DNA from: Pontiella sp.
GTDB lineage: Bacteria; Verrucomicrobiota; Kiritimatiellia; Kiritimatiellales; Pontiellaceae
NCBI GenBank assembly: GCA_050290185.1
Contig: JBNKHE010000003.1
Coordinates: 1 to 64,000, forward strand
Length of the DNA stretch: 64,000 nt
Direction: 5' to 3'
Each line of letters opens with the position of its first letter. The stretch's first letter is position 1. Below are positions 1 to 63,951 of this stretch, one piece after another. The position numbers and the translations under genes were made by a program. The notes beneath the pieces were generated by a model. That model saw only the letters and a list, made by a program, of their open reading frames with translations, searched no databases and was not told the DNA's origin.

Positions 1-405
1 TTTTAGAGTATTGAGTAACGCATCAATAAATTCATCCTCAAGAGATGAGTCTGAATACATCAGAAATCGTTTTCCGACCATTGAGATCGGTAGAGTCGAC
101 TCGTGGGAGATTATATAAATGATTGGCTTACCTAGTGTACCTGCAACACCAGTAAAGTAGGTGACGTTTGGGTTGCTAGCTGTAACATCGCACAGAAAAA
201 GATCATATTCTTTTAACTTGTTTATGGATGCAGTTTCATCGTTCTCAAAAAGGTCATAGATGAAAGATATCTCTATGGAGTCCAGATTCTCCTGAATTTG
301 GTTGGTTAAAAACTGGGTTGTTGTTTTGAACTCAAACAACTTTTCACTATTTTTGTTGAATGAATCGTGTTGGGGGCTTTTAGGGGTGATGTAGAGTAGC
401 TTCAT
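1..405 (-). CDS. Cassette protein, partial (runs off window); nucleoside 2-deoxyribosyltransferase-like Rossmannoid domain
   Basis: Manual translation from ATG 405 (AGGAG upstream): MKLLYITPKS...YDLFLCDVTASNPNVTYFTGVAGTLGKPIIYI..., open to base 1; matches the D-x-T-x2-NPNV-x-Y-x2-G-x-A-x3-KP pattern. Confidence 0.7.
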   Translation of the reverse strand, partial: MKLLYITPKSPQHDSFNKNSEKLFEFKTTTQFLTNQIQENLDSIEISFIYDLFENDETASINKLKEYDLFLCDVTASNPNVTYFTGVAGTLGKPIIYIISHESTLPISMVGKRFLMYSDSSLEDEFIDALLNTLK

Positions 406-418
406 TATTTGTTCTCCT

Positions 419-508
419 GCCTAACGTTACGTGTGACCTGCGCGGGATATATGCGTTAGGCATGAAAATTGTGCGATTTACCGCGTAAGGTCCACGCGCT
501 GGTTCGGC
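419..508 (-). repeat. attC-like site 1
   Basis: Minus strand GCCGAAC-CAGCGCGTGGACCTTACGCGG...CCGCGCAGGTCACACGTAAC-GTTAGGC. Confidence 0.9.
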
Positions 509-933
509 CAGCTCTTGTAGTGCTCTATTTGTTGTTTTAGTTGTTCAAATTTTGTCTTCGAAATATTCTTTTTGTCGAATCGATCTTTTAGTCCATCAAG
601 CATGTCTTTTTCGTTCAGGTTGCACCAATCCCAAACCATCATTTCATAATTTAACCAACCAGCTGTTTCCCATGCGATGATACGCATGTTCATAATATCT
701 TCTGACGAATAGCCACGATTGATTAATTCATTCACAAATCTGAGGTATCCTTCTGGTTCATGATCTGTATCGAGAACCTCTTCGAGAACGCATTCCCATG
801 AACTCAACTTTGGCAACTTGGGAAGTTTCGCTTTTTCCGAATCAGATAATTTTTCGTACAAGCTTAGGGCTTCGACAAGACGTCCTTTCTTGGAGATCCT
901 CTTCAGAAATCTATTTGTGATGAATGTCGCCAT
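478..933 (-). CDS. Cassette hypothetical protein
   Basis: ORF from ATG 933 (MATFITNRF...); the upstream in-frame extension lies inside attC; stop codon is inside attC 1. Confidence 0.8.
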   Translation of the reverse strand: MATFITNRFLKRISKKGRLVEALSLYEKLSDSEKAKLPKLPKLSSWECVLEEVLDTDHEPEGYLRFVNELINRGYSSEDIMNMRIIAWETAGWLNYEMMVWDWCNLNEKDMLDGLKDRFDKKNISKTKFEQLKQQIEHYKSWPNQRVDLTR

Positions 934-942
934 ATTTCTAGT

Positions 943-1032
943 GCCGAACGTTTGGTGTGACCCGCCCGGGAATAAACCGTCAGGCATGAAAATTGTGCGT
1001 TTTACCGGGTAGGGTCCATGCCCTGGTTCGGC
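943..1032 (-). repeat. attC-like site 2
   Basis: Plus strand GCCGAAC(943)...GTTCGGC(1032) with internal GTGTGACCCGCCCGG / CCGGGTAGGGTCCATGC arms. Confidence 0.9.
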
Positions 1033-1379
1033 TTTAGTTGTTTTGCTTGTTCAAGTAATTGCTCCGGTAATGCTTCGCATGATTCCGCTACGTCTGGTGC
1101 ACCAAACGTGTCATGTAGTGCTCCTGCCATGTTCACAATCAAATCATGATAATCATCGGGTAGTGATGTTGCCAACCATGTGTCATTCAACATTGCATGG
1201 TCATTTAATGAATTGCAGTTCTGGTTTGTTCGCCCTGTGGATGAACAGAGATATTTCAACATCGAGATGAACTGTGCTTTTAGGCAAATGAGGTCAATTG
1301 GTCGGATCGCTAAGTATGAGTCAATAATCTCAACGTGTTTGCTTAGGATATCGTCTTGGTTCTTCATTTTATTCTTCAT
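1002..1379 (-). CDS. Cassette hypothetical protein
   Basis: 125 aa ORF filling the cassette; ATG directly follows the core site; ends inside attC 2. Confidence 0.8.
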   Translation of the reverse strand: MKNKMKNQDDILSKHVEIIDSYLAIRPIDLICLKAQFISMLKYLCSSTGRTNQNCNSLNDHAMLNDTWLATSLPDDYHDLIVNMAGALHDTFGAPDVAESCEALPEQLLEQAKQLKPNQGMDPTR

Positions 1380-1467
1380 GCCGAACGTTTGGTGTGACTT
1401 TCCGGGGAATCAAACTTTGACCTACTCAACTGGCGTTTTCCCGGTAAAGTCCATGCCCTGGTTGGGG
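1380..1467 (-). repeat. attC-like site 3
   Basis: GCCGAAC(1380)...GTTGGGG(1467) with GACTTTCCGGG / CCCGGTAAAGTC arms. Confidence 0.88.
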
Positions 1468-1821
1468 ATTTATTACTTCAGTTAATTCAAACTGTGTGCC
1501 TATAAATTCAAAATCATCATCAGGATTGTCAAAAAAATCTACATGGTCTTCTCTGAATTCTTCGGCACAATCGTTAGTTTCACCTCTCCATAACCACTCT
1601 GGAATATCGCTCCATTTGCAGAGTTCATTTTTTAGAATTCGGATTTTACATCTAGCAATTTTGTTGGAGTCATACACCGTGAGTATCTCTCCAACGTCTA
1701 ATCCGGTATCCCATTCGTCTATATAACCCTGTTCCTCGATTCGGTCAGCCGTCGCAGTTTTACGTTTTTCAATGATTTGATCAATCAACCGATCAAATGT
1801 GAAGGATGCGCGTTTTTCCAT
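1426..1821 (-). CDS. Cassette ASCH (PUA-like) domain protein
   Basis: ATG 1821 with AAGGAG; LIDQIIEKRKTATA...VGEILTVYDS...CKIRI...GE...EEFREDHVDFF resembles ASCH family motifs. Confidence 0.7.
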   Translation of the reverse strand: MEKRASFTFDRLIDQIIEKRKTATADRIEEQGYIDEWDTGLDVGEILTVYDSNKIARCKIRILKNELCKWSDIPEWLWRGETNDCAEEFREDHVDFFDNPDDDFEFIGTQFELTEVINPQPGHGLYRENAS

Positions 1822-1831
1822 ATTTCTCCTT

Positions 1832-1920
1832 CCCCAACGTTTGGTGTGACCTGCGCGGGGCATAAACTTTGACACGAAGATTGTGCGTTTTTCCGCGTAA
1901 GGTCCATGCCCTGGTTGGGC
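1832..1920 (-). repeat. attC-like site 4
   Basis: CCCCAAC(1832)...GTTGGGC(1920), same arms as the other copies. Confidence 0.9.
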
Positions 1921-2369
1921 TACTTATCAGTATTTTCTCTGTTGGTTACGGCATAAATAATAAACATCACTAATAGGGCAATGGATATGAAGAGGAGGGT
2001 TTTGGTTGAAAATAATGCCGAAACTATCAACAGGATGATTGATAAGACATAAGCCACCTCCATCAATAAATCTTTTACTCGGTCATGAGTGTCGGGTCCC
2101 ATATGACCCTCTGCACCTTCACCAAAATTGGCTAGGAGATTAAATATTGGAGCGAAAAAGGACGCAAAAATGTCGCTGAACTTTGATCCAAAAATTGGGA
2201 GAGCTAAAAAAAGCACTGCATAAACCAACCCAATATTTCCTATCTTCCAGCTCATCAACCTCAGGCATGTGCTGGTTGCGAATATAATAAGCAGCGCTAA
2301 AGTCAGGCCACCGATAAATCCTGAAACTCGTTCAAATAATCTACCGATTTTTTGGAGGATTGTTTTCAT
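1920..2369 (-). CDS. Cassette integral membrane protein (about 4 TM)
   Basis: 149 aa with several hydrophobic stretches; stop overlaps the attC edge. Confidence 0.8.
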   Translation of the reverse strand: MKTILQKIGRLFERVSGFIGGLTLALLIIFATSTCLRLMSWKIGNIGLVYAVLFLALPIFGSKFSDIFASFFAPIFNLLANFGEGAEGHMGPDTHDRVKDLLMEVAYVLSIILLIVSALFSTKTLLFISIALLVMFIIYAVTNRENTDK

Positions 2370-2380
2370 ATTTTATGTAT

Positions 2381-2471
2381 GCCCAACGTTTGGTGTGAGC
2401 CGCCTCGCGCTTAATCTTCAGGCACGACAGATTGTGCGTTGGCCGAGGTAGGCTCCATGCCCTGGTTAGCT
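2381..2471 (-). repeat. attC-like site 5
   Basis: GCCCAAC(2381)...GTTAGCT(2471) with GAGCCGCCTCG / CGAGGTAGGCTC compensated arms. Confidence 0.88.
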
Positions 2472-2860
2472 GTTTTTGTAATTGGTATGTTCTTCAATTT
2501 AAGGCTTATATGGCCCGAGTCAGCCGGCCAGATCCGCAACTCGGTATGTTCTAAGGCTTCTTGAGAAATATCGAGACAGTATACACGTTTGTTGTCATTT
2601 CCATGCCCTGCGATAAAACAGGAGGCAATGATTTTATGCTCTTCAGGATCCTCAAGGGTCATCTGTACAACTTTTTGTTTTGCGGATTTATTAATGGTTA
2701 TTCTGATATGGAAATCCGACCACCCACCTTCTTCCATTACACAGTGGATTCCTTCATAATTTGTAGACCCATCGGCATTAACAACCAATTCTGGAAACCC
2801 AATGAAATGGGCAAAAACGTGAGTGGAGAGAAGCATCAAGATAAAGAGTATTTTTTTCAT
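2411..2860 (-). CDS. Cassette exported hypothetical protein
   Basis: Signal peptide MKKILFILMLLSTHVFA; reads into attC 5. Confidence 0.8.
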   Translation of the reverse strand: MKKILFILMLLSTHVFAHFIGFPELVVNADGSTNYEGIHCVMEEGGWSDFHIRITINKSAKQKVVQMTLEDPEEHKIIASCFIAGHGNDNKRVYCLDISQEALEHTELRIWPADSGHISLKLKNIPITKTANQGMEPTSANAQSVVPED

Positions 2861-2870
2861 TTTCTTTCCT

Positions 2871-2960
2871 AGCTAACGTTTCGTGTGACCTGCGCGGGGC
2901 TTATGCGTTGGGCATGAAAATTGTGCGTTTTACCGCGTAAGGTCCACGCGCTGGTTCTGC
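2871..2960 (-). repeat. attC-like site 6
   Basis: AGCTAAC(2871)...GTTCTGC(2960); 2882-2956 identical to 4190-4264. Confidence 0.9.
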
Positions 2961-3442
2961 TATTTTTTATAAGGCAACTTGAATATTTCGTGGTGGAGCA
3001 TTTCCGACTTGAGCAACATCAGCTGTCCTCCTTTGTATTCAAACGTATTGCGAATATTATATACACCGAAACCACGATTTTCCTCTGTGGTAATGACTTC
3101 AATCATCTCAGATTCGACAACAACTTTGTTCCCTTCCTGGGTAATGCTCTGAGGAGTTGATGATGTGTGATACTGACCGGATTTTCTTAATTTCATCATC
3201 GATGGAGTGCGATCGAGATATTGTTTCTTTGTGCACCGAATTTCTTTCGGGTCATCTACAGTTTGGTCGATTATCACAAATCCTTCTTCAGGGATGTACG
3301 CTTCAACCAGTTTCGGGTTTCCCTCAGCGCTTATCTTGGAATCTAGGTAAAAATACTTGAGTACGTCAGCTTCTACATCACGTCCTTGGCATGCATTAGT
3401 CAGCGGGAGCAAAATCAAAAATATGGCTATGAGTTTATTCAT
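2960..3442 (-). CDS. Cassette putative lipoprotein, possibly NTF2-like fold
   Basis: MNKLIAIFLILLPLTNAC lipobox-like; the helix-then-strand pattern only suggests an NTF2 fold. Confidence 0.7.
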   Translation of the reverse strand: MNKLIAIFLILLPLTNACQGRDVEADVLKYFYLDSKISAEGNPKLVEAYIPEEGFVIIDQTVDDPKEIRCTKKQYLDRTPSMMKLRKSGQYHTSSTPQSITQEGNKVVVESEMIEVITTEENRGFGVYNIRNTFEYKGGQLMLLKSEMLHHEIFKLPYKK

Positions 3443-3453
3443 TATTTCTCCAT

Positions 3454-3541
3454 GCAGAACGTTACGTGTGACCCGCCGTGCACATAAACTTCGACCTAAT
3501 CAATTGGCGTTTTCACGGTAGGGTCCATGCGCTGGTTAGCT
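3454..3541 (-). repeat. attC-like site 7
   Basis: GCAGAAC(3454)...GTTAGCT(3541). Confidence 0.88.
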
Positions 3542-4150
3542 TGATTTTTTTACCCTTTTAATCTGGATCTTCAATTCAGTTGGAGTTTCGATTCCGATCC
3601 AGCTACCATCAGGTTGTAGAATTAGATCAGCGTAATAATCTTTCCCTACGTCCTGCAAAATTACCCTGAGCACATGATTTTTTAATTTTAATCGTATTTT
3701 TCGAGGACCGACCCATCTCCCATCTTTTATTTCAAACAGTATTGGTGCGCCGCTCCCGTTCCAGACCCATTCACCGTCCAGGTCTTTTTTTGATTTTGGA
3801 ATTGTTAACTTCTTCAAATCTACCTTCTTTAGCACAACAGTAGATCCCGAAGGGAATTCCACACCCTTCCACGACCCGTCGGCTTGCATAGCTAGGTCAA
3901 CATAGGAGACATCTGAATTTTTTTCATGTAAAATTTCGCCATCAAGTTTGAAAGTAATAGGAAGGTTATCAACTTTTCCGTTTTTTAGAATAAACGCGGT
4001 TTTTCCTGTTCCCCAATCCCATGTCCAAGCCCCATCCAATTCCTTAATTGACTTAGGTATGTTTATTGAATGTTCATTGATCTGGCAGAATGAATTATTT
4101 GTAATTATGAGAATAGAGAAGATTGTTGTGACAATTCTTATATCAACCAT
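3536..4150 (-). CDS. Cassette exported protein with internal tandem duplication
   Basis: Signal-like N-terminus; two copies of IPKS-x-K-[ED]-LDG-x-W-x-W...Y-x-DL-x2-Q-x-DGSW-x-G-x-E-x-P. Confidence 0.8.
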   Translation of the reverse strand: MVDIRIVTTIFSILIITNNSFCQINEHSINIPKSIKELDGAWTWDWGTGKTAFILKNGKVDNLPITFKLDGEILHEKNSDVSYVDLAMQADGSWKGVEFPSGSTVVLKKVDLKKLTIPKSKKDLDGEWVWNGSGAPILFEIKDGRWVGPRKIRLKLKNHVLRVILQDVGKDYYADLILQPDGSWIGIETPTELKIQIKRVKKSS

Positions 4151-4178
4151 TGTTGTGCTCCTTGCTTTTTGTTTTTTC

Positions 4179-4268
4179 TGCTAACGTTACGTGTGACCTG
4201 CGCGGGGCTTATGCGTTGGGCATGAAAATTGTGCGTTTTACCGCGTAAGGTCCACGCGCTGGTTAGCC
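4179..4268 (-). repeat. attC-like site 8
   Basis: TGCTAAC(4179)...GTTAGCC(4268). Confidence 0.9.
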
Positions 4269-4681
4269 ACATTTAGTCTTTCGCTATAAAATCTATCAAT
4301 GATGTCCACATGACCGGCACCATATTTGCCTGGGGTAGCTTGAATGTCTACGGATACTGGTGCCCAGTAGTGCTTAAGAGTAACTCCGGTCGCTCTGATC
4401 GCAGAGATAATATTATCGCTCGTCTCAGGCACACATTTGACCGATGCATACAGTTCGAAGACCTCTCCGGGATGTTTCTTCTGATATTTCGTTAACGCTT
4501 TAGACAACTCATCTAGATCAATACATTCAATGTCTGTACCAACGAACTCAAATGTACGCTCAGATGTGTACTTAATAGTCATCACGCTCTCGGATGAGTG
4601 TGTGTTGCTCTGTCTGTCCTGATTGATCGTACAGCCACTAAAGCAAGATAAAATCAATAAACTGACCAATGTACTCTTCAT
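4238..4681 (-). CDS. Cassette putative lipoprotein, ExbD/TolR-periplasmic-domain-like
   Basis: LLILSCFSGC lipobox; IDLDELSKALTKYQKKHPGEVFELYAS...IISAIRATGV resembles the ExbD C-terminal domain pattern. Confidence 0.65.
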   Translation of the reverse strand: MKSTLVSLLILSCFSGCTINQDRQSNTHSSESVMTIKYTSERTFEFVGTDIECIDLDELSKALTKYQKKHPGEVFELYASVKCVPETSDNIISAIRATGVTLKHYWAPVSVDIQATPGKYGAGHVDIIDRFYSERLNVANQRVDLTR

Positions 4682-4692
4682 AATTTTTCTCT

Positions 4693-4779
4693 GGCTAACG
4701 TTACGAGTGACCCGCTTGGGAATCAGACTCTGACCTAAAAACAGGCGTTGTCCAAGTAGGGTCTACTCGCTGGTTAGGA
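4693..4779 (-). repeat. attC-like site 9
   Basis: GGCTAAC(4693)...GTTAGGA(4779) with CGAGTGACCCGCTTGG / CCAAGTAGGGTCTACTCG compensated arms. Confidence 0.88.
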
Positions 4780-4780
4780 C

Positions 4781-5347
4781 TTATTTAATTAAAGGTGAAA
4801 AAATAGGGTCATTGCTTCCAAATTTATAGCCGTCTGGCATCAGAGCAGGGTAATCCTTCTGAGTTTGTTGGATCGATGATTCTATATAATCCTTAGGTGT
4901 GCATTTAAGTGTTGCATAGAACATAAAATCCCGAATGCGTTGTTGGACTTCGGGAGGTTGTTTCGTCATTACTTCACAGAAATCAACCTGCCCGCCTTCT
5001 CCCCAATTAAGGAACCCGCTGAAAATGATCTGGCCATAGCTTCTGGCATTCTGATCCAACGATGTGAAATGGAGAGATAATGCGAACACACTGCCCAATG
5101 CATTTGTATCTCCGGTTTCATAAATCTTTGTCATCGCTGATTCAAAGTCATACCCATGGCTTTCAGCGAAAGTGATCAAATTCGTAATATCCTGATCCGA
5201 AATCTCACCAAACGGCATTCCATCTGAAAATGGTGTGTCATCGTCTAGTTTGATATTTGCGTTATTAAAGGTCGTGTTCACCTTGGTGCGTGGGGCACAG
5301 CTGACAACGAACAGTGTTAATAGACATGCTAAGAGTAAATTCTTCAT
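4781..5347 (-). CDS. Cassette putative lipoprotein
   Basis: MKNLLLACLLTLFVVSC lipobox; 188 aa. Confidence 0.8.
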   Translation of the reverse strand: MKNLLLACLLTLFVVSCAPRTKVNTTFNNANIKLDDDTPFSDGMPFGEISDQDITNLITFAESHGYDFESAMTKIYETGDTNALGSVFALSLHFTSLDQNARSYGQIIFSGFLNWGEGGQVDFCEVMTKQPPEVQQRIRDFMFYATLKCTPKDYIESSIQQTQKDYPALMPDGYKFGSNDPIFSPLIK

Positions 5348-5354
5348 TATTTGG

Positions 5355-5444
5355 TCCTAACGTTACGTGTGACCTGCGCGGGACTTATGCGTTAGGCATG
5401 AAAACTGTGCGTTTTACCGCGTAAGGTCCACGCGCTGGTTGGAC
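5355..5444 (-). repeat. attC-like site 10
   Basis: TCCTAAC(5355)...GTTGGAC(5444), near-identical to sites 1, 6 and 8. Confidence 0.9.
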
Positions 5445-5453
5445 AAAATTTTA

Positions 5454-5873
5454 TTATGATCCCTTTGGTGATTCTAAGTAATAGGCTTTTTTAGGATCCG
5501 AATCTCCCCAGCATTTATTAAGTCTAGAATCGATGCTGGATTTAAAAACTATGCTATAACCAGAAACCTCATCGTTACACAGTTCAATATCTGCGTTCCA
5601 TATACCTTCATTATTCTGAATACATCCGCTGTATAATGAGTTAAGCAGTAAATCCCCCGAAGGTGAGTATCTTCTCTTTTCTTCGATCTTTGGAAGAAGG
5701 TCAGATAAATACGCTAAATCATAATTCGGATGGCCTAGCGTAAGATCAGAAAGCTCAGGAGGTAACGTAGGATAACCATGTTGAGATATCGCCCTGCGAT
5801 ATTGCCAAAGAATATATGTCGGCATGACAATGAATAAGATCAGGCAGGCAATGATTATGATGGCTAGTATCAT
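5454..5873 (-). CDS. First cassette: membrane-anchored hypothetical protein
   Basis: N-terminal TM helix, 139 aa. Confidence 0.8.
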   Translation of the reverse strand: MILAIIIIACLILFIVMPTYILWQYRRAISQHGYPTLPPELSDLTLGHPNYDLAYLSDLLPKIEEKRRYSPSGDLLLNSLYSGCIQNNEGIWNADIELCNDEVSGYSIVFKSSIDSRLNKCWGDSDPKKAYYLESPKGS

Positions 5874-5882
5874 TTTCTTTCA

Positions 5883-5921
5883 GTCCAACAGTTGATTAGG
5901 CAGAAACGGATTCTGCCTATT
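5883..5921 (-). other. Putative attI-like primary recombination site
   Basis: Core GTTGGAC (minus, 5889-5883) is complementary to the first cassette's own R'' and is not embedded in an attC; adjacent inverted repeat TAGGCAGAA-N5-TTCTGCCTA. Confidence 0.55.
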
Positions 5922-6251
5922 TCATGGTTGCTCTTATGGGTTAGATAGAAAACATTCACAATAAAATTAATCAAGGGAAATGGGTTTTGAACGGGAAAAG
6001 GAGTGTCTTTGTAAGGTATTAATGAAAAATATTTCTGCCTAGCATCGGTTTCTCCGGACGGATTAGGTGGAAAAGCAATCCGGAGCGGATTGTTTCAATG
6101 GTCAGATCGCTGTTCTTTTTTTGTTCTTTTGCATTTTCCAGCTTGCCGCGGTTTTGCCGTTTAAGTACATAGTCTATCAAGTGGGCCCAAAGCCGGCACG
6201 GGGCTGGTAGGGGGCGTCCCATGAAGCATACGATCCAATAGGAGATACAAG

Positions 6252-6542
6252 ATGGCAGTAACAAAAACGCAGATCATCGCCAAGATCGCCGATGATGCCG
6301 ATATCACCAAGGTTCAGGCAAAGGCCGCTTTGGAATCCCTCGTAGCGCAGGCGTACAAGGGTGCGAAGTCCAAGGATGGATTCACCATTCCCGGTATCGG
6401 CAAGCTGATCAAGGTTCGCCGCAAGGCTCGCATGGGTCGCAATCCGGCCACCGGTGAACAGATCAAGATTGCTGCCAAGACAGTTCTCAAGTTCCGTATT
6501 GCCAAGGCGGCCAAAGATGCCGTGGTTCCGCCGAAGAAATAG
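6252..6542 (+). CDS. hup: HU family DNA-binding protein
   Basis: MAVTKTQII...FTIPGIGKL...RKARMGRNPATGEQIKIAAKTVLKFR; AGGAG RBS. Confidence 0.95.
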   Translation: MAVTKTQIIAKIADDADITKVQAKAALESLVAQAYKGAKSKDGFTIPGIGKLIKVRRKARMGRNPATGEQIKIAAKTVLKFRIAKAAKDAVVPPKK

Positions 6543-6561
6543 AGTTTTCCGGTAGTCCAAC

Positions 6562-6593
6562 AAAAAGGGAGGTCATGCGGCCTCCCTTTTTTT
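6562..6593 (+). terminator. Rho-independent terminator (bidirectional shape)
   Basis: AAAAAGGGAGGTC-ATGC-GGCCTCCC-TTTTTTT after hup. Confidence 0.85.
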
Positions 6594-6732
6594 GTGTACA
6601 TCCGGTGCGCACATCCTCCCTGTTGTTTCAATTTGTATATTTCCCGAATGGTATCGGTTATCGATCCGGGTGTCCTGTTGATGGCAATATGCCGGTTTAT
6701 GGATTTCGTGAAGCGGGATGAAAGGAATATCT

Positions 6733-53980: not shown

Positions 53981-54883
53981 ATGAATAGTTACAATTTATC
54001 ACATTTGAAGCAGTTGGAGGCGGAAAGCATCCACATTATCCGGGAGGTGGCGGCCGAATTCGATAATCCGGTCATGCTCTATTCCATTGGCAAAGACTCT
54101 TCGGTAATGCTGCATCTGGCCCATAAGGCTTTTGCGCCCGGTAAGATTCCGTTTCCGCTGATGCACGTCGATACCCAGTGGAAGTTTCAGGAAATGTACA
54201 AGTTCCGTACGTTGATGGCTGAAAAGTACGAGGTGGATATCAAGGTCTGGATCAACCCGGAGGGCAAGGATCAGGTCGGTCCGTTTTCCCATGGATCTGA
54301 GAAGCACACCCAGATCATGAAGACCGATGCACTCAAGCAGGCGTTGGATCACTATAAGTTCGATGCCGCCTTCGGTGGTGCTCGCCGCGATGAGGAAAAG
54401 AGTCGCGCCAAGGAGCGCGTCTACAGCTTCCGCAACGAATATCATCAGTGGGATCCGAAAAACCAGCGCCCCGAGCTTTGGAACCTCTACAACGCCAAAA
54501 TAAACAAGGGCGAATCCATCCGCGTCTTTCCGCTCTCGAACTGGACCGAGCTCGACATCTGGCTCTATCTGCTGCGCGAAGATATTCCGATCGTTCCGCT
54601 GTACTATGCAGCCGAACGCCCGGTGGTGGAGCGCGATGGCGTGTTGATCATGCTCGACGACGACCGCATGCAGCTCAAGGAGGGGGAAACTCCCATGCAG
54701 AAAAAGGTGCGCTTCCGCACCTTGGGATGCTATCCGCTGACCGGCGCCGTCGAATCCAATGCCGAAACCGTCGAGGAAATCGTGCAGGAAATGTTGCTTA
54801 CCACCACCTCTGAACGCCAGGGCCGCGTGATCGATGGCGACAACTCCTCGATGGAAGATAAGAAGAAGGATGGCTACTTTTAG
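53981..54883 (+). CDS. cysD: Sulfate adenylyltransferase subunit 2
   Basis: [43 protein letters not shown]. Confidence 0.99.
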
Positions 54884-54903
54884 CCGCCGGCTAAAAAGTA
54901 GCC

Positions 54904-54940
54904 GCGTTGAAGCGTTTAAACCGTTAAAGGTTGAAGTCGT
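54904..54940. repeat. Upstream 8-9-nt periodic repeats (CGTTNAA-type)
   Basis: GCGTTGAA-GCGTTTAAA-CCGTTAAA-GGTTGAA-GTCGT; inverse of the 55371-55460 units. Confidence 0.75.
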
Positions 54941-54949
54941 GGGTTTGTC

Positions 54950-55375
54950 ATGAAAGTGGAGCGGTTTGAGGAATTGGATGCATGGAAGGTAGCGCGTGAA
55001 TTGTCCAACTTGGTTTATGCGCTTGGTGGGGACTCCGGAATTTCAAGAGACTATGGGTTCAAGGACCAGATTCAACGGGCAGCGGTTTCTGTAATGAACA
55101 ATATTTCCGAGGGATTTGAGCGCGGGAGTAACAAAGATTATGCAAAGTTTTTATTTATTGCCCGAGGTTCTGTCGGAGAGGTTCGAAGCATGCTTTACCT
55201 TGCTCTGGACCAGAAATATATAACCCATGAGCAATTCAATGAGGCTTATAATCTGTGTGTTCGGGAGTCGCAGCTTTGCTGGGGCTTGATCAAGCACCTG
55301 CAGAAAACGAGTAATTGGAAGACGGGGGCGCAAGTAGTACTCATGATGCTGGTTCCTCTCCTCATGCGGGTTTAA
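54950..55375 (+). CDS. Four-helix-bundle protein (23S rRNA IVP / bAvd-like family)
   Basis: FEELDAWK.A...DQIQRAAVSVMNNISEGFER...FLFIARGSVGEVRSML. Confidence 0.93.
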   Translation: MKVERFEELDAWKVARELSNLVYALGGDSGISRDYGFKDQIQRAAVSVMNNISEGFERGSNKDYAKFLFIARGSVGEVRSMLYLALDQKYITHEQFNEAYNLCVRESQLCWGLIKHLQKTSNWKTGAQVVLMMLVPLLMRV

Positions 55376-55460
55376 CGCATTCAACGATTTCAACGACTTT
55401 AACGAGCAACGCGATTTAACGGTTTTAACGAGCAAAGCGATTTAACGATTTAAACGGAGC
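55371..55460. repeat. Downstream 9-nt periodic repeats (TTYAACGNN)
   Basis: TTTAACGCA TTCAACGAT TTCAACGAC TTTAACGAG ... TTTAACGGT TTTAACGAG ... TTTAACGAT TTAAACGGA. Confidence 0.85.
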
Positions 55461-55467
55461 GAATAGA

Positions 55468-57435
55468 ATGAGTGACAACACCTACAAAATCCAAGAAGAA
55501 GAGCTGATCCGTTCGGATATCAGCGAATACCTCAATCGGCATGAAACGAAGGACCTGCTGCGGCTGTTGACCTGCGGTTCCGTGGACGATGGAAAGTCGA
55601 CCTTGATCGGTCGCCTGTTGTACGACACCCACATGATCTACGAAGATCAGCTGGAAAAAGTCGCCAAGGATTCCAAGGTCTATGGCACCACCGGCGAGGA
55701 TTTCGATCCGGCCCTTTTGACCGACGGTTTGAAGGCCGAACGCGAACAGGGCATCACCATTGATGTGGCCTACCGCTATTTCTCGACCGATAAGCGCAAG
55801 TTCATCATTGCCGACTGTCCCGGCCACGAGCAGTACACCCGCAATATGGCCACCGGCGCATCGACCTGCAATCTGGCGGTTATCCTGATCGACGCGCGCT
55901 ACGGCGTGATCACCCAGACCAAGCGGCACAGCTTCATCTGCTCACTGCTGGGGATCAAGCACGTGGTGGTGGCCGTCAACAAGATGGATCTGGTCGACTG
56001 GTCCGAAGAGGTCTACGACAAAATCAAGGAAGACTACAACGCGTTTGTCTCCCGACTGAACTTTTCCGACATCCACTTTATCCCGATGTCCGCCCTCAAG
56101 GGCGACAACGTGGTTACGCACAGCGAAAATCTGGCGTGGTACGATGGGCCGACCTTCCTCCACCATATGGAAAGCGTGAACATTTCCACTGATCGCAACC
56201 TGATCGATATGCGCCTGCCGGTGCAGTATGTCCTGCGCCCGAATCTAGATTTCCGCGGGTTCAGCGGAACGCTGGCCTCCGGTGTGATCCGCAAGGGCGA
56301 CGAGGTGGCCAGCCTGCCATCGCGCCAGCAGTCGAAAATCAAGGCGATTTATGGCCCCGACGGCGAAATCGAAGAGGCGTTCGCGCCGCAGGCGATCACC
56401 GTCACCCTCGAAGATGAAATCGATGTTTCGCGCGGCAACATGCTTGTGCCCGTAAATAACATTCCGCACATTGGCAACGAGTTTGAAGCCATGGTGGTCT
56501 GGATGCACGAAGACGCCGCGCAGTCGGGTAGAAGCTACCTCGTCAAGCACACCTCCTCGATGGTGCCGGGCGTGCTGACAGACGTTCGCTACCGCGTCGA
56601 TGTCAATACCATGAAGCGCGACAAGAATACGCTGGAAACGGAAAAGGTCGATGCCTTGCAGCTCAATGAAATCGGACGCTGCCACATTACGTTGCACCGG
56701 CCAATCGCCTTCGATCCCTACGAACGCAACCGCGCAACGGGAGCGTTCATTATCGTGGACCGGTTGAGCAATATTACGGTGGGCGCCGGCATGATCGTTG
56801 ACCGTATTGTTTCCAAGCCCGGACATAAAAAGGCTCCGGTGAGCCAGAATATTGTCAGGAGCGACAGTCTGGTCAGCGCCGAAGACCGGCAGAACCTTCT
56901 CGGACAGAAGGGGTCCACGATCTGGCTGACCGGGTTGAGTGGATCCGGCAAGTCAACCATTGCCCAGAAGCTGGAAAAAGAGCTGATCGCGCAGGGGCAT
57001 CTCTGCTACATCCTTGATGGCGATAATGTGCGCCACGGCTTGAACCGCGATCTCGGATTCTCCATGGAGGACCGCAAGGAAAACATCCGTCGAATCGCCG
57101 AAGTCGCGGCGCTGATGAATGACGCCGGTGTGATTGTGATCACGTCCTTTATTTCCCCCTATATCTCCGATCGTTCCGCGGCGCGTGAAGTCATTGGCGA
57201 TGATTCTTTCATCGAGGTGTTTGTCGATACGCCGATCGAGGTCTGCGAGCAGCGCGATCCGAAGGGGCTATACAAAAAAGCCCGTTCCGGCGAGATCCAG
57301 CAGTTTACCGGTGTGAGTGATCCGTACGAAGCGCCGCAGGATGCTGAAATCGTTCTCCAGACAGAAAATGTCGCACCGGAAGAGGCCGCCGGCATGATCA
57401 TCGACGACCTCAAGGACCGTGGCATTGTTTCTTAG
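55468..57435 (+). CDS. cysNC: Bifunctional sulfate adenylyltransferase subunit 1 / APS kinase
   Basis: TCGSVDDGKSTLIGRLL, EQGITIDVAYRYF; WLTGLSGSGKST, LDGDNVRHGL, RDPKGLYKKA. Confidence 0.98.
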   Translation: MSDNTYKIQEEELIRSDISEYLNRHETKDLLRLLTCGSVDDGKSTLIGRLLYDTHMIYEDQLEKVAKDSKVYGTTGEDFDPALLTDGLKAEREQGITIDVAYRYFSTDKRKFIIADCPGHEQYTRNMATGASTCNLAVILIDARYGVITQTKRHSFICSLLGIKHVVVAVNKMDLVDWSEEVYDKIKEDYNAFVSRLNFSDIHFIPMSALKGDNVVTHSENLAWYDGPTFLHHMESVNISTDRNLIDMRLPVQYVLRPNLDFRGFSGTLASGVIRKGDEVASLPSRQQSKIKAIYGPDGEIEEAFAPQAITVTLEDEIDVSRGNMLVPVNNIPHIGNEFEAMVVWMHEDAAQSGRSYLVKHTSSMVPGVLTDVRYRVDVNTMKRDKNTLETEKVDALQLNEIGRCHITLHRPIAFDPYERNRATGAFIIVDRLSNITVGAGMIVDRIVSKPGHKKAPVSQNIVRSDSLVSAEDRQNLLGQKGSTIWLTGLSGSGKSTIAQKLEKELIAQGHLCYILDGDNVRHGLNRDLGFSMEDRKENIRRIAEVAALMNDAGVIVITSFISPYISDRSAAREVIGDDSFIEVFVDTPIEVCEQRDPKGLYKKARSGEIQQFTGVSDPYEAPQDAEIVLQTENVAPEEAAGMIIDDLKDRGIVS

Positions 57436-57650
57436 TGCCTAGGACCTGGGGCTAGTGCGTAGTCCTTTGTCCGTAGTTATATATCCAGTGCATGGAACCG
57501 GTGCTGGAATGCATGAAGATAGCGTGCTTCAAGGATATGGGAGGTTGGGAAACGGGGTGCGGACCTACTCGGCAGTATAGCTTATACACGCCGGGCCGAA
57601 TTCGTTAGGCACTCCGGATCAGGCACCAGGAACGAAACGCTAGGCACAGC
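57433..57650. repeat. Inverted 7-nt periodic repeats around a ~125 bp spacer
   Basis: TAGTGCC TAGGACC .. TAGTGCG TAGTCCT TTGTCCG on the left; TAGGCAC, CAGGCAC, CAGGAAC, TAGGCAC on the right. Confidence 0.6.
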
Positions 57651-57652
57651 AG

Positions 57653-58849
57653 ATGAAAAAGATCATCGTAACAGGCGGGGCCGGTTTTATCGGGACGGCG
57701 ATATGCCTTCATTTGGTGCGTACCCTTGAATATCAGGTACTGAATGTTGACAAGCTGACCTATGCCGGCGTGCCGGAGTCTTTGAAGGAAATCGAAGACA
57801 ACCCGCTTTATCGCTTTGAAAAGGCAGATGTGTGCGACAAAGCGACGATCGGTGAGCTGTTTTCCGATTTTAAGCCGGATGCTGTGATGCACCTTGCTGC
57901 GGAGTCGCACGTTGACCGGTCGATCGACGGCCCCGCCGCTTTCATCGAAACCAATATCGTCGGCACCTACACCCTGCTGGAATGTGCGCGACAGTATTGG
58001 AACAGCCTGCCGGGAAAAGTAGCAGACTCCAAACTCCAAACCCCAAACCGCGAAGACTTCCGCTTCCTCCACATCTCGACGGATGAGGTTTATGGTTCGC
58101 TCGGCGCCGAAGGATTATTCAAGGAAACTACGGCTTACGCTCCGCGTTCCCCTTATTCGGCGAGCAAGGCTGCGAGTGATCATCTGGTGATGGCATGGTA
58201 CCACACCTACGGTTTACCTGTAATTATCACGAACTGCTCGAATAACTATGGTCCGCGCCAGTTTCCGGAAAAACTGATTCCTCTCGTCATTCTGAATGCG
58301 CTGGACGGGAAGCCGCTGCCTGTTTACGGCAAGGGCGATAACATCCGCGACTGGCTCTATGTCGAAGATCACGCCCGTGCTCTGGTTGAGGTGATGGAAA
58401 AGGGGCGGCCGGGTGAGACCTACAACATCGGCGGCCGCAATGAACGCACCAATCTCGAAATCGTTGAAACCATCTGCGATGTATTGGACGAGCTCCGGCC
58501 GTTAACGCCCGGGAATGATGAGTGTGCGTTGTCAAATGATGGGAGAATACCAAATCAACCATCAACCAACAACCATCAACCAAAGAAACAGATCAAATCC
58601 TATAAGGATTTGATCTGTTTCGTCGCCGACCGCCCGGGACACGACAAGCGTTACGCCATCGACGCCACGAAAATTGAAACGGAACTGGGCTGGAAGGCTC
58701 ATGAAACATTTGACGCAGGTATACGCCGGACCATCGAGTGGTACCTGGAAAACGAATCATGGTGGAAGCCCATACGGGAAGGCCGGTCTGCCGGCGAACG
58801 GCTGGGATATGGAAAATGCCGCGGCGCATCATGCGGTGATGGAGCTTGA
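57653..58849 (+). CDS. rfbB: dTDP-glucose 4,6-dehydratase
   Basis: [54 protein letters not shown]. Confidence 0.97.
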
Positions 58850-58876: not shown

Positions 58877-59929
58877 ATGAAAAAAGCATTGATTACAGGC
58901 ATTACGGGACAGGACGGTTCCTATTTGACGGAATTGTTGTTGGAGAAGGGCTACGAAGTGCACGGCATTATCCGGCGTGCGAGTTCGTTCAACACGGATC
59001 GCATCGATCACCTCTACAAGGACCGGCACGAGAGCGGCGTCAAGATGTTCCTGCACTATGGAGACCTGACCGATTCGAGCAATCTGAATCGCCTGGTGGA
59101 AAAGATCCAGCCAGCGGAAATCTACAACCTGGCCGCGCAGTCGCATGTGCAGGTTTCTTTCGAGGTGCCGGAATACACCGCCGAAGCCGATGCCATCGGC
59201 GTGTTGCGTCTGCTCGATGCCATTCGGGAAACCGGCATTGACAGCCGCTTCTATCAGGCCTCCACCTCCGAACTGTACGGCAAGGTGATGGAAGTTCCGC
59301 AAACCGAAACCACGCCGTTCTATCCGCGCTCGCCCTATGCCGTCGCCAAGCAATACGGTTTCTGGATCGTCAAAAACTACCGCGAGTCCTACGGCCTTCA
59401 TGCCAGCAACGGCATTCTCTTCAACCACGAATCCCCGCGCCGCGGCGAAACCTTTGTAACCCGCAAGATTACCATGGCCGTCGCCCGTATTTCGCGCGGC
59501 CTGCAGCAATGTCTCTACATGGGTAACATCAACGCCCTGCGCGACTGGGGTTTCGCCCCGGACTATGTCGAAATGATGTGGATGATGCTTCAGCAGGACA
59601 CGCCCGACGACTATGTGGTCGCCACGAACGAAATGCATACCGTCCGCGAGTTCATCGAAAAATCCTTCGGACACGTCGGGATCGAAATCGCGTGGGAAGG
59701 AGAGGGCGTTGATGAGGTCGGAAAAAACAAGGCCACCGGCGATATTGTCGTTCGCATGGATGAACGCTACTACCGCCCCTGCGAAGTCGAACAGCTCCTC
59801 GGCAACCCCGCCAAAGCCAAGCGCCAACTCGGCTGGGAGCCCAAGGTCAAGTTCGAGCAGCTCGTCCAGATCATGACCGACGGCGATCTGCGCCTGCTGG
59901 ATGGCGAATCCTACGAGGTAGGATTCTAG
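58877..59929 (+). CDS. gmd: GDP-mannose 4,6-dehydratase
   Basis: [49 protein letters not shown]. Confidence 0.99.
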
Positions 59930-59967
59930 TTGCTCGTTGTTTTGTTGATAGTTGATAGGGGGTTGCT
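59927..59967. repeat. Upstream 7-nt periodic repeats (NNGTTGN)
   Basis: TAGTTGC TCGTTGT ..TGTTGA TAGTTGA TAG.. GGGTTGC. Confidence 0.75.
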
Positions 59968-59969
59968 CC

Positions 59970-60350
59970 ATGAAAACCTTTGAAGAACTGGAGTGCTACA
60001 AGCAGGCAAGGCAACTCCGCAAGGATGTGTCTCGATTCTGCAAAACCCTTCCTCGCGCAGAGGAGTACCGCTTGAAGGACCAGATTGTCCGGTCATCCCG
60101 TTCAGTAAGCGCGAACATTGCAGAAGGTTATGGTCGCCATCACCATCAAGAAAACATTCAGTTCTGCAGAACAGCACGTGGTTCGCTGACTGAAACACTG
60201 GATCATCTGAATGCTGCGTTGGATGAGGATTATTTATCTCAGGATGAATACACGGAAATGAGGGGACTACTGGAGAATGTTTGGAAAGTTCTCAACGGCT
60301 ACATTGCCTATCTTAAACGTTGCGCTTCCGAAGGTGTGCCGAACGCATAA
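59970..60350 (+). CDS. Four-helix-bundle protein (23S rRNA IVP / bAvd-like family)
   Basis: MKTFEELECYKQA...LPRAEEYRLKDQIVRSSRSVSANIAEGYGR...ARGSLTET. Confidence 0.94.
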   Translation: MKTFEELECYKQARQLRKDVSRFCKTLPRAEEYRLKDQIVRSSRSVSANIAEGYGRHHHQENIQFCRTARGSLTETLDHLNAALDEDYLSQDEYTEMRGLLENVWKVLNGYIAYLKRCASEGVPNA

Positions 60351-60353
60351 TCC

Positions 60354-60430
60354 CAACAACCAGCAACTTTCACCCTGACAACAAGGAGCTTTCAAGTGGA
60401 TTCAGCAACCAGCAATCAACAACCAACAAC
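60354..60430. repeat. Downstream 7-nt periodic repeats (CARCAAY)
   Basis: CAACAAC CAGCAAC (60354-60367); CAGCAAC CAGCAAT CAACAAC CAACAAC (60403-60430). Confidence 0.8.
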
Positions 60431-63725: not shown

Positions 63726-63951
63726 TCTCGCAGAGCCACCCGAGCCAGCCTCACTTCGTGTCTCTGTTTTCTCTCGTTCGAGTCTGAGCCTGATGGCTCT
63801 TCCCTCAGAGTCGAAGACTGTGTGAGATAAAAATACGGAAGAAAGGTTCACGCAGAGCCAGCAGAGTCAGCCGAGAAGAAGACCTCTGTTATCTCTGTTG
63901 ACTCTGTGTGAGATAAAAAACGGAAGAAGAGTTCACGCAGAGCCAGCAGAG
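63726..63951. repeat. Tandem hairpin units made of 9-nt repeats
   Basis: ~48-bp direct repeat at 63818-63866 and 63904-63951; hairpin TCACGCAGAG CCAGCAGAG TCAGCCGAG ... CTCTGTTAT CTCTGTTGA CTCTGTGTGA. Confidence 0.8.

Follow-up and report, generated by a model that had tools for sequence, protein, structure and literature searches.

Between cysD and cysNC of a Pontiella sp. operon lies a gene for a predicted four-helix-bundle protein, enclosed by inverted arrays of a short word. In relatives, the same junction occurs in empty, filled, swapped and decayed states. The window, that is, the whole stretch of 64,000 nucleotides analysed here, was followed up together with related genomes, from which the anatomy of the locus, its allelic states, recurrence at several sites, selection on the protein, a grammar of words and spacers, and gene-less doublets of the same word are described directly. 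The reading that we favour, with somewhat less than even confidence, is a selfish cassette: a REPIN-like doublet of word arrays whose loop contains the gene, the product being predicted to form a ring and to bind nucleic acid. In most relatives, the junction it occupies is either empty or taken by a different cassette.

The features of the locus are collected in the table below. The cassette junction lies within an operon that opens with a NusG/RfaH-like gene, continues with glmS and cysQ, and extends to rfbB, gmd and fcl. The NusG/RfaH-like gene (PF02357, 48658-49209) heads this sulfation/polysaccharide operon, where such cassettes collect.

Features of the cassette at the cysD-cysN junction and of two further cassettes in the same operon (window coordinates)
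Feature	Position	Strand	Remarks
cysD, upstream host gene	53981-54883	+	PF01507; hairpin 5' arm made up of its last 3 codons plus the stop
Hairpin over the cysD stop TAG (54881-54883)	54872-54903	+	14 bp, one bulged A, 3-nt loop
Left arm	54905-54940	+	four words of the CGTTRAA type, complementary in reverse to TTYAACG
Likely ribosome-binding region of the cassette gene	54934-54952	+	prediction
Four-helix-bundle gene (PF05635/TIGR02436)	54950-55375	+	141 aa
Right arm	55371-55456	+	eight words of the TTYAACG type with a 9-nt period, most of them separated by 2 nt
Spacer A-[GC-AAC-GC]-GA	55405-55414	+	minimal A-hairpin-G form
Spacer A-[GC-AAA-GC]-GA	55431-55440	+	minimal A-hairpin-G form
GGAG within the insert, Shine-Dalgarno-like for cysN	55456-55459	+	inferred from position, 8 nt before ATG
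cysNC, downstream host gene	55468-57435	+
Gutted cassette, cysNC-rfbB junction	57433-57650	+	other word type (TAGTGC / GCAC)
Second PF05635 cassette of the operon, gmd-fcl junction	59927-60430	+	gene ~59970-60350; own GTTG/CAAC words

An earlier note, made from the letters alone, had described an IVP-like four-helix gene between the two host genes, and profile searches bear this out, with scores well above the cut-offs for both PF05635 (E 2.7e-31; 108.3 bits against 33.8) and TIGR02436 (97.6 against 24). The flanking words are mutually reverse-complementary, as the note had also recognized. Those of the left arm are CGTTGAA at 54905, CGTTTAAA at 54913, CGTTAAA at 54922 and GGTTGAA at 54929, while those of the right arm start at 55371, 55380, 55389, 55398, 55415, 55424, 55441 and 55449, the last one being TTTAAACG. 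The 9-nt periodicity ascribed to both arms holds for most of the right arm only; the left-arm words are spaced by 7-9 nt, so this arm is not strictly 9-periodic. The right-arm density, with eight words in 90 nt, has a Poisson chance of about 2e-19 given the genome's own word rate, and the stop codon TAA of the four-helix gene falls within the first right-arm word. Interruptions of the form GAGCAA(C/A)GCGA were found at 55404 and 55430, as noted before, and correspond to the 2-bp form of the A-[hairpin]-G spacer described below. No transposase or reverse transcriptase was matched with Pfam among the 48 window proteins scanned (the main ORFs, with a few short ones excluded), in line with the first reading of the region.

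Pairing of the arms in multiple registers is likewise predicted. The arm-arm duplex reaches -36.6 kcal/mol (z -3.1, equalled by 1 of 500 shuffles) with bulges and several near-equal registers, and the left arm is paired to the right arm at a predicted P of 0.79. Including the right arm raises the predicted pairing of the first 12 nt of the ribosome-binding region from 0.49 to 0.89. Arm pairing is also the starting point of an explanation in line with that of the earlier note, an mRNA intervening sequence: the arms would pair, RNase III would cut the cassette out of the transcript, and the hairpin over the stop would protect the freed 3' end of cysD. This explanation is compatible with a selfish cassette, and it has a precedent in the Coxiella intervening sequence, for which PMC4990558 describes a terminal stem of 28 bp, heptamer repeats ahead of the S23p ORF and excision by RNase III; an RNase III gene is also present in our genome. 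We nevertheless consider it rather unlikely, as the fold of the whole region (631 nt) barely beats shuffles (z -1.7), the longest contiguous match between the arms is 16 nt at 94%, and the expected in-register co-variation is not seen: the arms of a given cassette pair no better with each other than with swapped arms (p=0.57 for 10 type-A and p=0.15 for 9 type-B cassettes). Processing would also leave the spread of the cassette unexplained.

The swap comparison indicates that base-by-base complementarity is not what is kept in the arms. Their conserved feature is instead the word together with a grammar of spacers. The spacers between words are 2 nt long in 47 of 88 cases and otherwise take the form A-[stem, 3-4-nt loop]-GN, in which the stem sequences are diverse yet complementary; among stems of at least 4 bp, 15 of 17 leave exactly 3 unpaired flanking bases. 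The A-hairpin-G rule also applies to gene-less loci that were not used for its derivation, where 14 of 38 distinct long spacers fit, compared to a mean of 0.3 and a maximum of 4 after shuffling, and many of the non-fitting long spacers are degenerate words. The presence of this grammar on both arms, in inverted orientation, suggests that what is recognized is a single strand, which may be DNA.

The earlier note had proposed looking for empty sites in relatives. A survey of 46 distinct close junctions between cysD and cysN found 22 that are empty, 17 with a cassette and 7 with short spacers, which shows that a normally adjacent gene pair is indeed split and that the four-helix gene is not stably inherited. 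The empty alleles are nearly uniform, with a TAATG overlap in 20 cases and a single case each of TAAAATG and TGATG. The cassettes belong to four word types: six are of type A (TTYAACG), nine of type B, which encodes a different IVP (about 30% identical) and uses the word GCGCCATG, one is a GTGGGAT remnant (type C) and one is an IVP with TAGC words. A stop, a frameshift or a deletion has broken 7 of the 17. Duplicated loci (L173=L069, L149=L068=L214, L148=L213) were counted once in the junction and site tallies, and L174, where the end of cysD was not found, was left out.

Junction states are scattered across the trees of cysD (37 rows) and cysN (36 rows, without the short L010). On the 37-row cysD tree, the empty label requires 10 changes, 7 of which are forced by starred branches, and filled and empty alleles occur as starred sister pairs, e.g., that of this genome and G019 (L007/L008, at 100/99). 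Only the final 12 nt of cysD and the initial ~30 nt of cysN show a link between flank sequence and state, with no long co-conversion tracts, in a comparison of 27 rows (10 of the 37 being set aside as divergent or short-spacer rows). The near-uniform TAA overlap in empty alleles, as opposed to the mixed stops of filled ones, seems to favor gains or junction-sized replacement rather than repeated exact loss, and the scattered states may also reflect an old polymorphism eroded by recombination. The synonymous divergence of the cassette genes is about that of cysD, and no recent jump is visible (synonymous counts of L018, which has a frameshift, and cysD counts of L069, which has an offset, were not used). 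No target-site duplication is evident relative to the empty alleles, the nearest of which is diverged. The only joint found across the cassette, from 54873 to 55495 (run X2), lies on a contig with 29/197 and 69/489 mismatches and is, given these mismatches, the empty allele of another species; no excised form of this organism's own allele was found in the contigs of four DNA runs from one study, contigs being prone to drop rare forms. In a distant cysD clade (L035, L179, L180, L181), gene-less inverted arms of the words ATTGCCGATT and AATGAAGAATG start from the cysD stop.

Cassette genes as old as cysD, and a flank linkage short enough to fit an old, recombination-eroded polymorphism, would suit a second explanation, which we regard as fairly unlikely. 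Here, the doublets are moved by another enzyme (RAYT/HUH or a PD-(D/E)XK nuclease) or expand by slippage, and the four-helix gene, caught as cargo in the loop, is retained for some unrelated function and exchanged between alleles by ordinary homologous recombination. Further observations that bear on this passenger role of the gene come from the other sites and the gene-less copies.

The perfect palindrome TTTTAGCCG-C-CGGCTAAAA (54878-54896), reported earlier to overlap the cysD stop TAG, is the core of the longer hairpin listed in the table. A stop hairpin of -11 kcal/mol or lower is present in 14 of the 17 cassette alleles and in none of the 22 empty ones. Its 3' arm tracks the synonymous codons and the stop type of cysD, with 50 of 57 Watson-Crick cells compared to 31 on permutation and no value as high in 10,000 permutations; this result is based on 19 alleles and three variable positions, the alleles being related and the partners fitted by a script. 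Both the co-variation and the link to filled alleles count in favor of an excised intervening sequence. The hairpin is common to different cassette types, is absent from the distant cysD clade, and occurs without a cassette, but with a T-rich tail, in L021, L168 and, in a weaker form, L026. Pairing probability alone separates the alleles poorly, as the empty L167 scores 0.94 at just -5.6 kcal/mol.

Across the wider set of loci, the palindrome is no general part of the element, as only 1 of 66 cassettes with an upstream gene (of 80) passes the same hairpin test, which is passed by 0 of 300 control genes (of 383), and the cassette-free occurrence in L021 and L168 speaks against it as well. A looser post-hoc test, passed by 3 of 16 kin cassettes, by none of 514 controls and by none of 62 from other phyla, was not counted, since similar pairing at the gmd end is also present in empty alleles. 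In the window itself, the last gmd codons form a perfect 9-bp triloop hairpin (59906-59926) immediately upstream of the stop codon ahead of the second IVP cassette, with weaker pairing in empty alleles. As a candidate intrinsic terminator in this allele, the cysD stop hairpin was rejected, none being called here on the + strand and only a weak 5-bp site on the minus strand. From these comparisons, we infer that the hairpin is a host-side structure of uncoupled cysD alleles, specific to this site, rather than an end signal of the element. Its role is probably protection or attenuation at the end of the cysD mRNA, and it may be kept perfect by selection or by template switching. It offers a separate lead on how a translationally coupled pair tolerates an insertion.

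The cassette protein was modelled with AF2 from a 27-row alignment (pLDDT 92). The model displays four long helices and an extra C-terminal hydrophobic helix (residues 126-139), which is common to the type-A relatives aligned. It closely resembles Xcc0516 (2GSC; TM 0.91, target-normalised; phmmer E 2e-14), and similarity extends to BT_0352 (2RLD) and to Avd (4DWL). By analogy with 2GSC and Avd, the protein may form a homopentamer. The nearest named relatives of the protein come from Pontiellaceae/Kiritimatiellales and Verrucomicrobiota assemblies. L099 and L155, which have short flanks, were left out of the protein tree. Seven type-A genes are under purifying selection, with dN of 0.08-0.22 and dS of at least 1.6 or saturated. 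All five PF05635 genes above the cut-off in this genome are flanked by their own mirror-image words, as identified by eye, and the arm-duplex z of the other four loci ranges from -1.2 to -4.2 in windows chosen by hand.

Four of these five genes are clustered in one operon region, behind the NusG/RfaH-like gene. This clustering, together with purifying selection and in-frame word arrays in the same cluster, raises the alternative of a host regulator, in which the ring protein would bind the word along the polysaccharide/sulfation operon mRNA, in the manner of TRAP or Hfq, and tune stability, termination or translation, the words being selected sites. We find this improbable in view of the many broken cassettes and empty junctions, the free swapping of types, and the gene-less copies, which in genomes lacking the protein lie beside or inside a wide range of unrelated genes. 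In the window, arrays of 7-nt words are translated in frame within rfbB and fcl (58026-58048, 58554-58582 and 60402-60430).

The mobile-element reading of the earlier note gains from the recurrence of the cassette at other sites. A type-A protein (70-83% identity) with the same word is present at four distinct gmd-fcl loci and at three further sites; exceptions among the type-A loci are L072, with direct words on both sides, and L151, which is devoid of the left part. Of 30 gmd junctions, 19 contain IVP genes of at least 4 types, 2 another repeat-flanked gene and 7 a short spacer; in one, another gene then follows, and one is truncated. At the gmd-fcl junction of L203, the gene is that of a PF13366 PD-(D/E)XK nuclease with its own repeats, which indicates that the repeat layout is not tied to the four-helix protein and suits the passenger explanation, as a nuclease gene occupies the same kind of junction. 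Within the window, CACGCAGAG / CTCTGTGTG repeats at 63730-63950 are similar to those around the PF13366 genes of L203 and L218. The cassette type that is gutted at the cysNC-rfbB junction here has an intact gene at the same junction in L156.

Extending the comparison to 103 IVP loci, a significant inverted word was detected in 68; in 72 loci the stronger word is in inverted orientation and in 20 it is in direct orientation. Word similarity tracks protein similarity (Mantel r 0.56 for 75 of the 103 loci, and 0.47 for the 21 loci of kin). Words are shared by proteins of different phyla that are 60-70% identical (cosine 0.42), whereas same-phylum pairs below 50% do not share them (0.03-0.06), with phylum labels that split the CPR groups. 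The word thus seems to follow the protein rather than the host, and simple linkage alone could also give this pattern. The constancy of the word within each protein clade, at different sites and in different phyla, argues against the gene being mere cargo.

The type-A word is also found without any gene. TTYAACG word pairs are present in 36 of 54 family genomes, with 162 matches compared to 19 for a reversed control. The richest genomes, G010, G011 and G059, have 30, 34 and 28 word pairs, whereas genomes with the type-A protein have just 0-7 each, and no close type-A protein was found in the three rich assemblies, which are 78-92% complete. The 27 inspected gene-less loci contain 13 CGTT-then-TTNAACG doublets, no reversed doublet, 15 one-sided arrays and 1 mixed one, with no IVP gene in any of the 27. 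These copies sit at gene junctions or in frame inside genes, and their inverted doublets make up a REPIN-like repeat family. TTYAACG-type arrays also lie in frame in a gyrB-like gene, named from its translation, in three genomes (L271, L277, L246).

High-copy genomes without the cognate protein again argue for a passenger gene. An enzyme of the RAYT kind is not apparent next to the word, however: TTYAACG arrays were found at none of the 4 Y1_Tnp loci of this genome and at none of 30 inspected (of 48) in 5 relatives, making 0 of 34 in all. The Y1_Tnp genes of this genome lie on contigs C2, C10 and C58, and reverse transcriptase fragments on C64 and C159, all off the window contig. Likewise, TTYAACG words bracket none of 30 inspected IVP loci (of 37) in five genomes. 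The genome also contains one inverted TTYAACG doublet in frame in a glycosyltransferase loop (L220, G000:C3:79942-81051). Efficient cleavage would be costly there, which weighs against RNA excision by arm pairing. In homologues of this loop (L221-L230), mostly other repeat-word families are in frame, over 13-74 aa, and the filling of one loop by different word families in different relatives is in turn more easily reconciled with a passenger gene.

Returning to the selfish cassette, a possible mechanism can be outlined. The ring protein, a putative homopentamer like Xcc0516 and Avd, would read its own word-plus-hairpin in single-stranded DNA or RNA. By analogy with Avd and the DGR reverse transcriptase, it may be a non-catalytic adaptor, which would pass the cassette to a putative enzyme encoded elsewhere. 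In the folding model, the right arm would fold back over the ribosome site of the cassette's own gene. Tolerance of the cassette would be explained by its position behind the upstream stop, by the new ribosome site that it provides for cysN and by its folding over its own. Several observations count against the selfish cassette, namely the word-pair-rich genomes without a close type-A protein, the lack of a bracketed IVP or Y1_Tnp locus among those inspected, the stronger direct orientation of the word in 20 of 103 loci, the lack of a visible recent jump, and the fact that linkage suffices for the match between word and protein.

A more general proposal, which we hold as possible although on balance doubtful, is that PF05635 genes with word arrays make up an undescribed class of mobile elements. 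A non-catalytic ring protein would read a family-specific word-plus-hairpin code in single strands and recruit a shared enzyme to operon junctions; gene-less doublets would be non-autonomous copies, and the rRNA intervening sequences and DGR Avd special cases. According to PMC4990558, PF05635 is a large family of unknown function with solved structures. If each clade recognizes its own short word, the family would gain a testable ligand and a link to dispersed short-repeat families, and the filling of polysaccharide-operon junctions and enzyme loops with such words would be explained. The present locus is a good test case, as a single junction is known here in its empty, filled, swapped and gutted forms and the predicted ligand is explicit, TTYAACG-A-hairpin-G. 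No description of repeat-armed PF05635 cassettes in operons was found in the literature searched (mostly open-access, main texts without supplements), and PMC5524665, in the part consulted, merely lists the gene in tables.

Among known systems, the intervening sequences of 23S rRNA, such as that in helix 45 of Coxiella burnetii with S23p, have in common with the cassette a protein of the same family in the loop of terminal inverted repeats, short tandem words beside the ORF and reductive ORF evolution, as far as described in PMC4990558. The cassette differs in that it lies in a protein-coding operon junction, between cysD and cysNC, rather than in an rRNA gene, and that its arms are arrays of words whose predicted pairing is bulged and spread over several registers rather than set in one long stem, its types swap at one site and gene-less copies exist; a search of Rfam gave no match except one chance miRNA at E 0.66. 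REPINs and RAYTs, as presented in PMC3116915 and 10.1101/279083, share inverted doublets that are dispersed over gene junctions with a fixed polarity, a short conserved word with adjoining GC-rich mini-hairpins, and a gene flanked by the repeats. Contrary to a REPIN, the repeat of the cassette is an array of 9-nt words and not a single palindrome, and contrary to a RAYT, the enclosed gene encodes a four-helix bundle without an HUH/Y1 match, no word-flanked RAYT having been found among the inspected Y1_Tnp loci. The Avd pentamer binds an RNA stem-loop via flipped-out bases and serves a separate catalytic partner (10.1101/2023.10.23.563531). DGR Avd (PDB 4DWL) shares the fold (TM 0.80 at 13% identity); unlike in a DGR, none of the scanned window proteins is a reverse transcriptase, and the cassette protein has the extra hydrophobic C-terminal helix.

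An insertion sequence was rejected in the absence of a transposase domain and of an evident duplication relative to the (diverged) empty alleles, and PADLOC defence models returned 0 families. Integron cassettes share a promoterless ORF, a stop in RYYYAAC (GTTTAAC, 55370) and GTT words upstream. The attC consensus is RYYYAAC ... GTTRRRY, and the interval 54851-55700 contains four RYYYAAC but no GTTRRRY, so there is no attC; other PF05635 cassette types, moreover, use unrelated words. Elsewhere in the window, at 400-6600, small minus-strand ORFs without Pfam matches alternate with attC-like repeats, forming an integron-type cassette array (400-3000 read). Taken together, family membership holds for the PF05635/TIGR02436 protein only, and the rRNA intervening sequences, REPIN/RAYT, DGRs, integron cassettes and insertion sequences each have a defining feature that sets them apart from this cassette.
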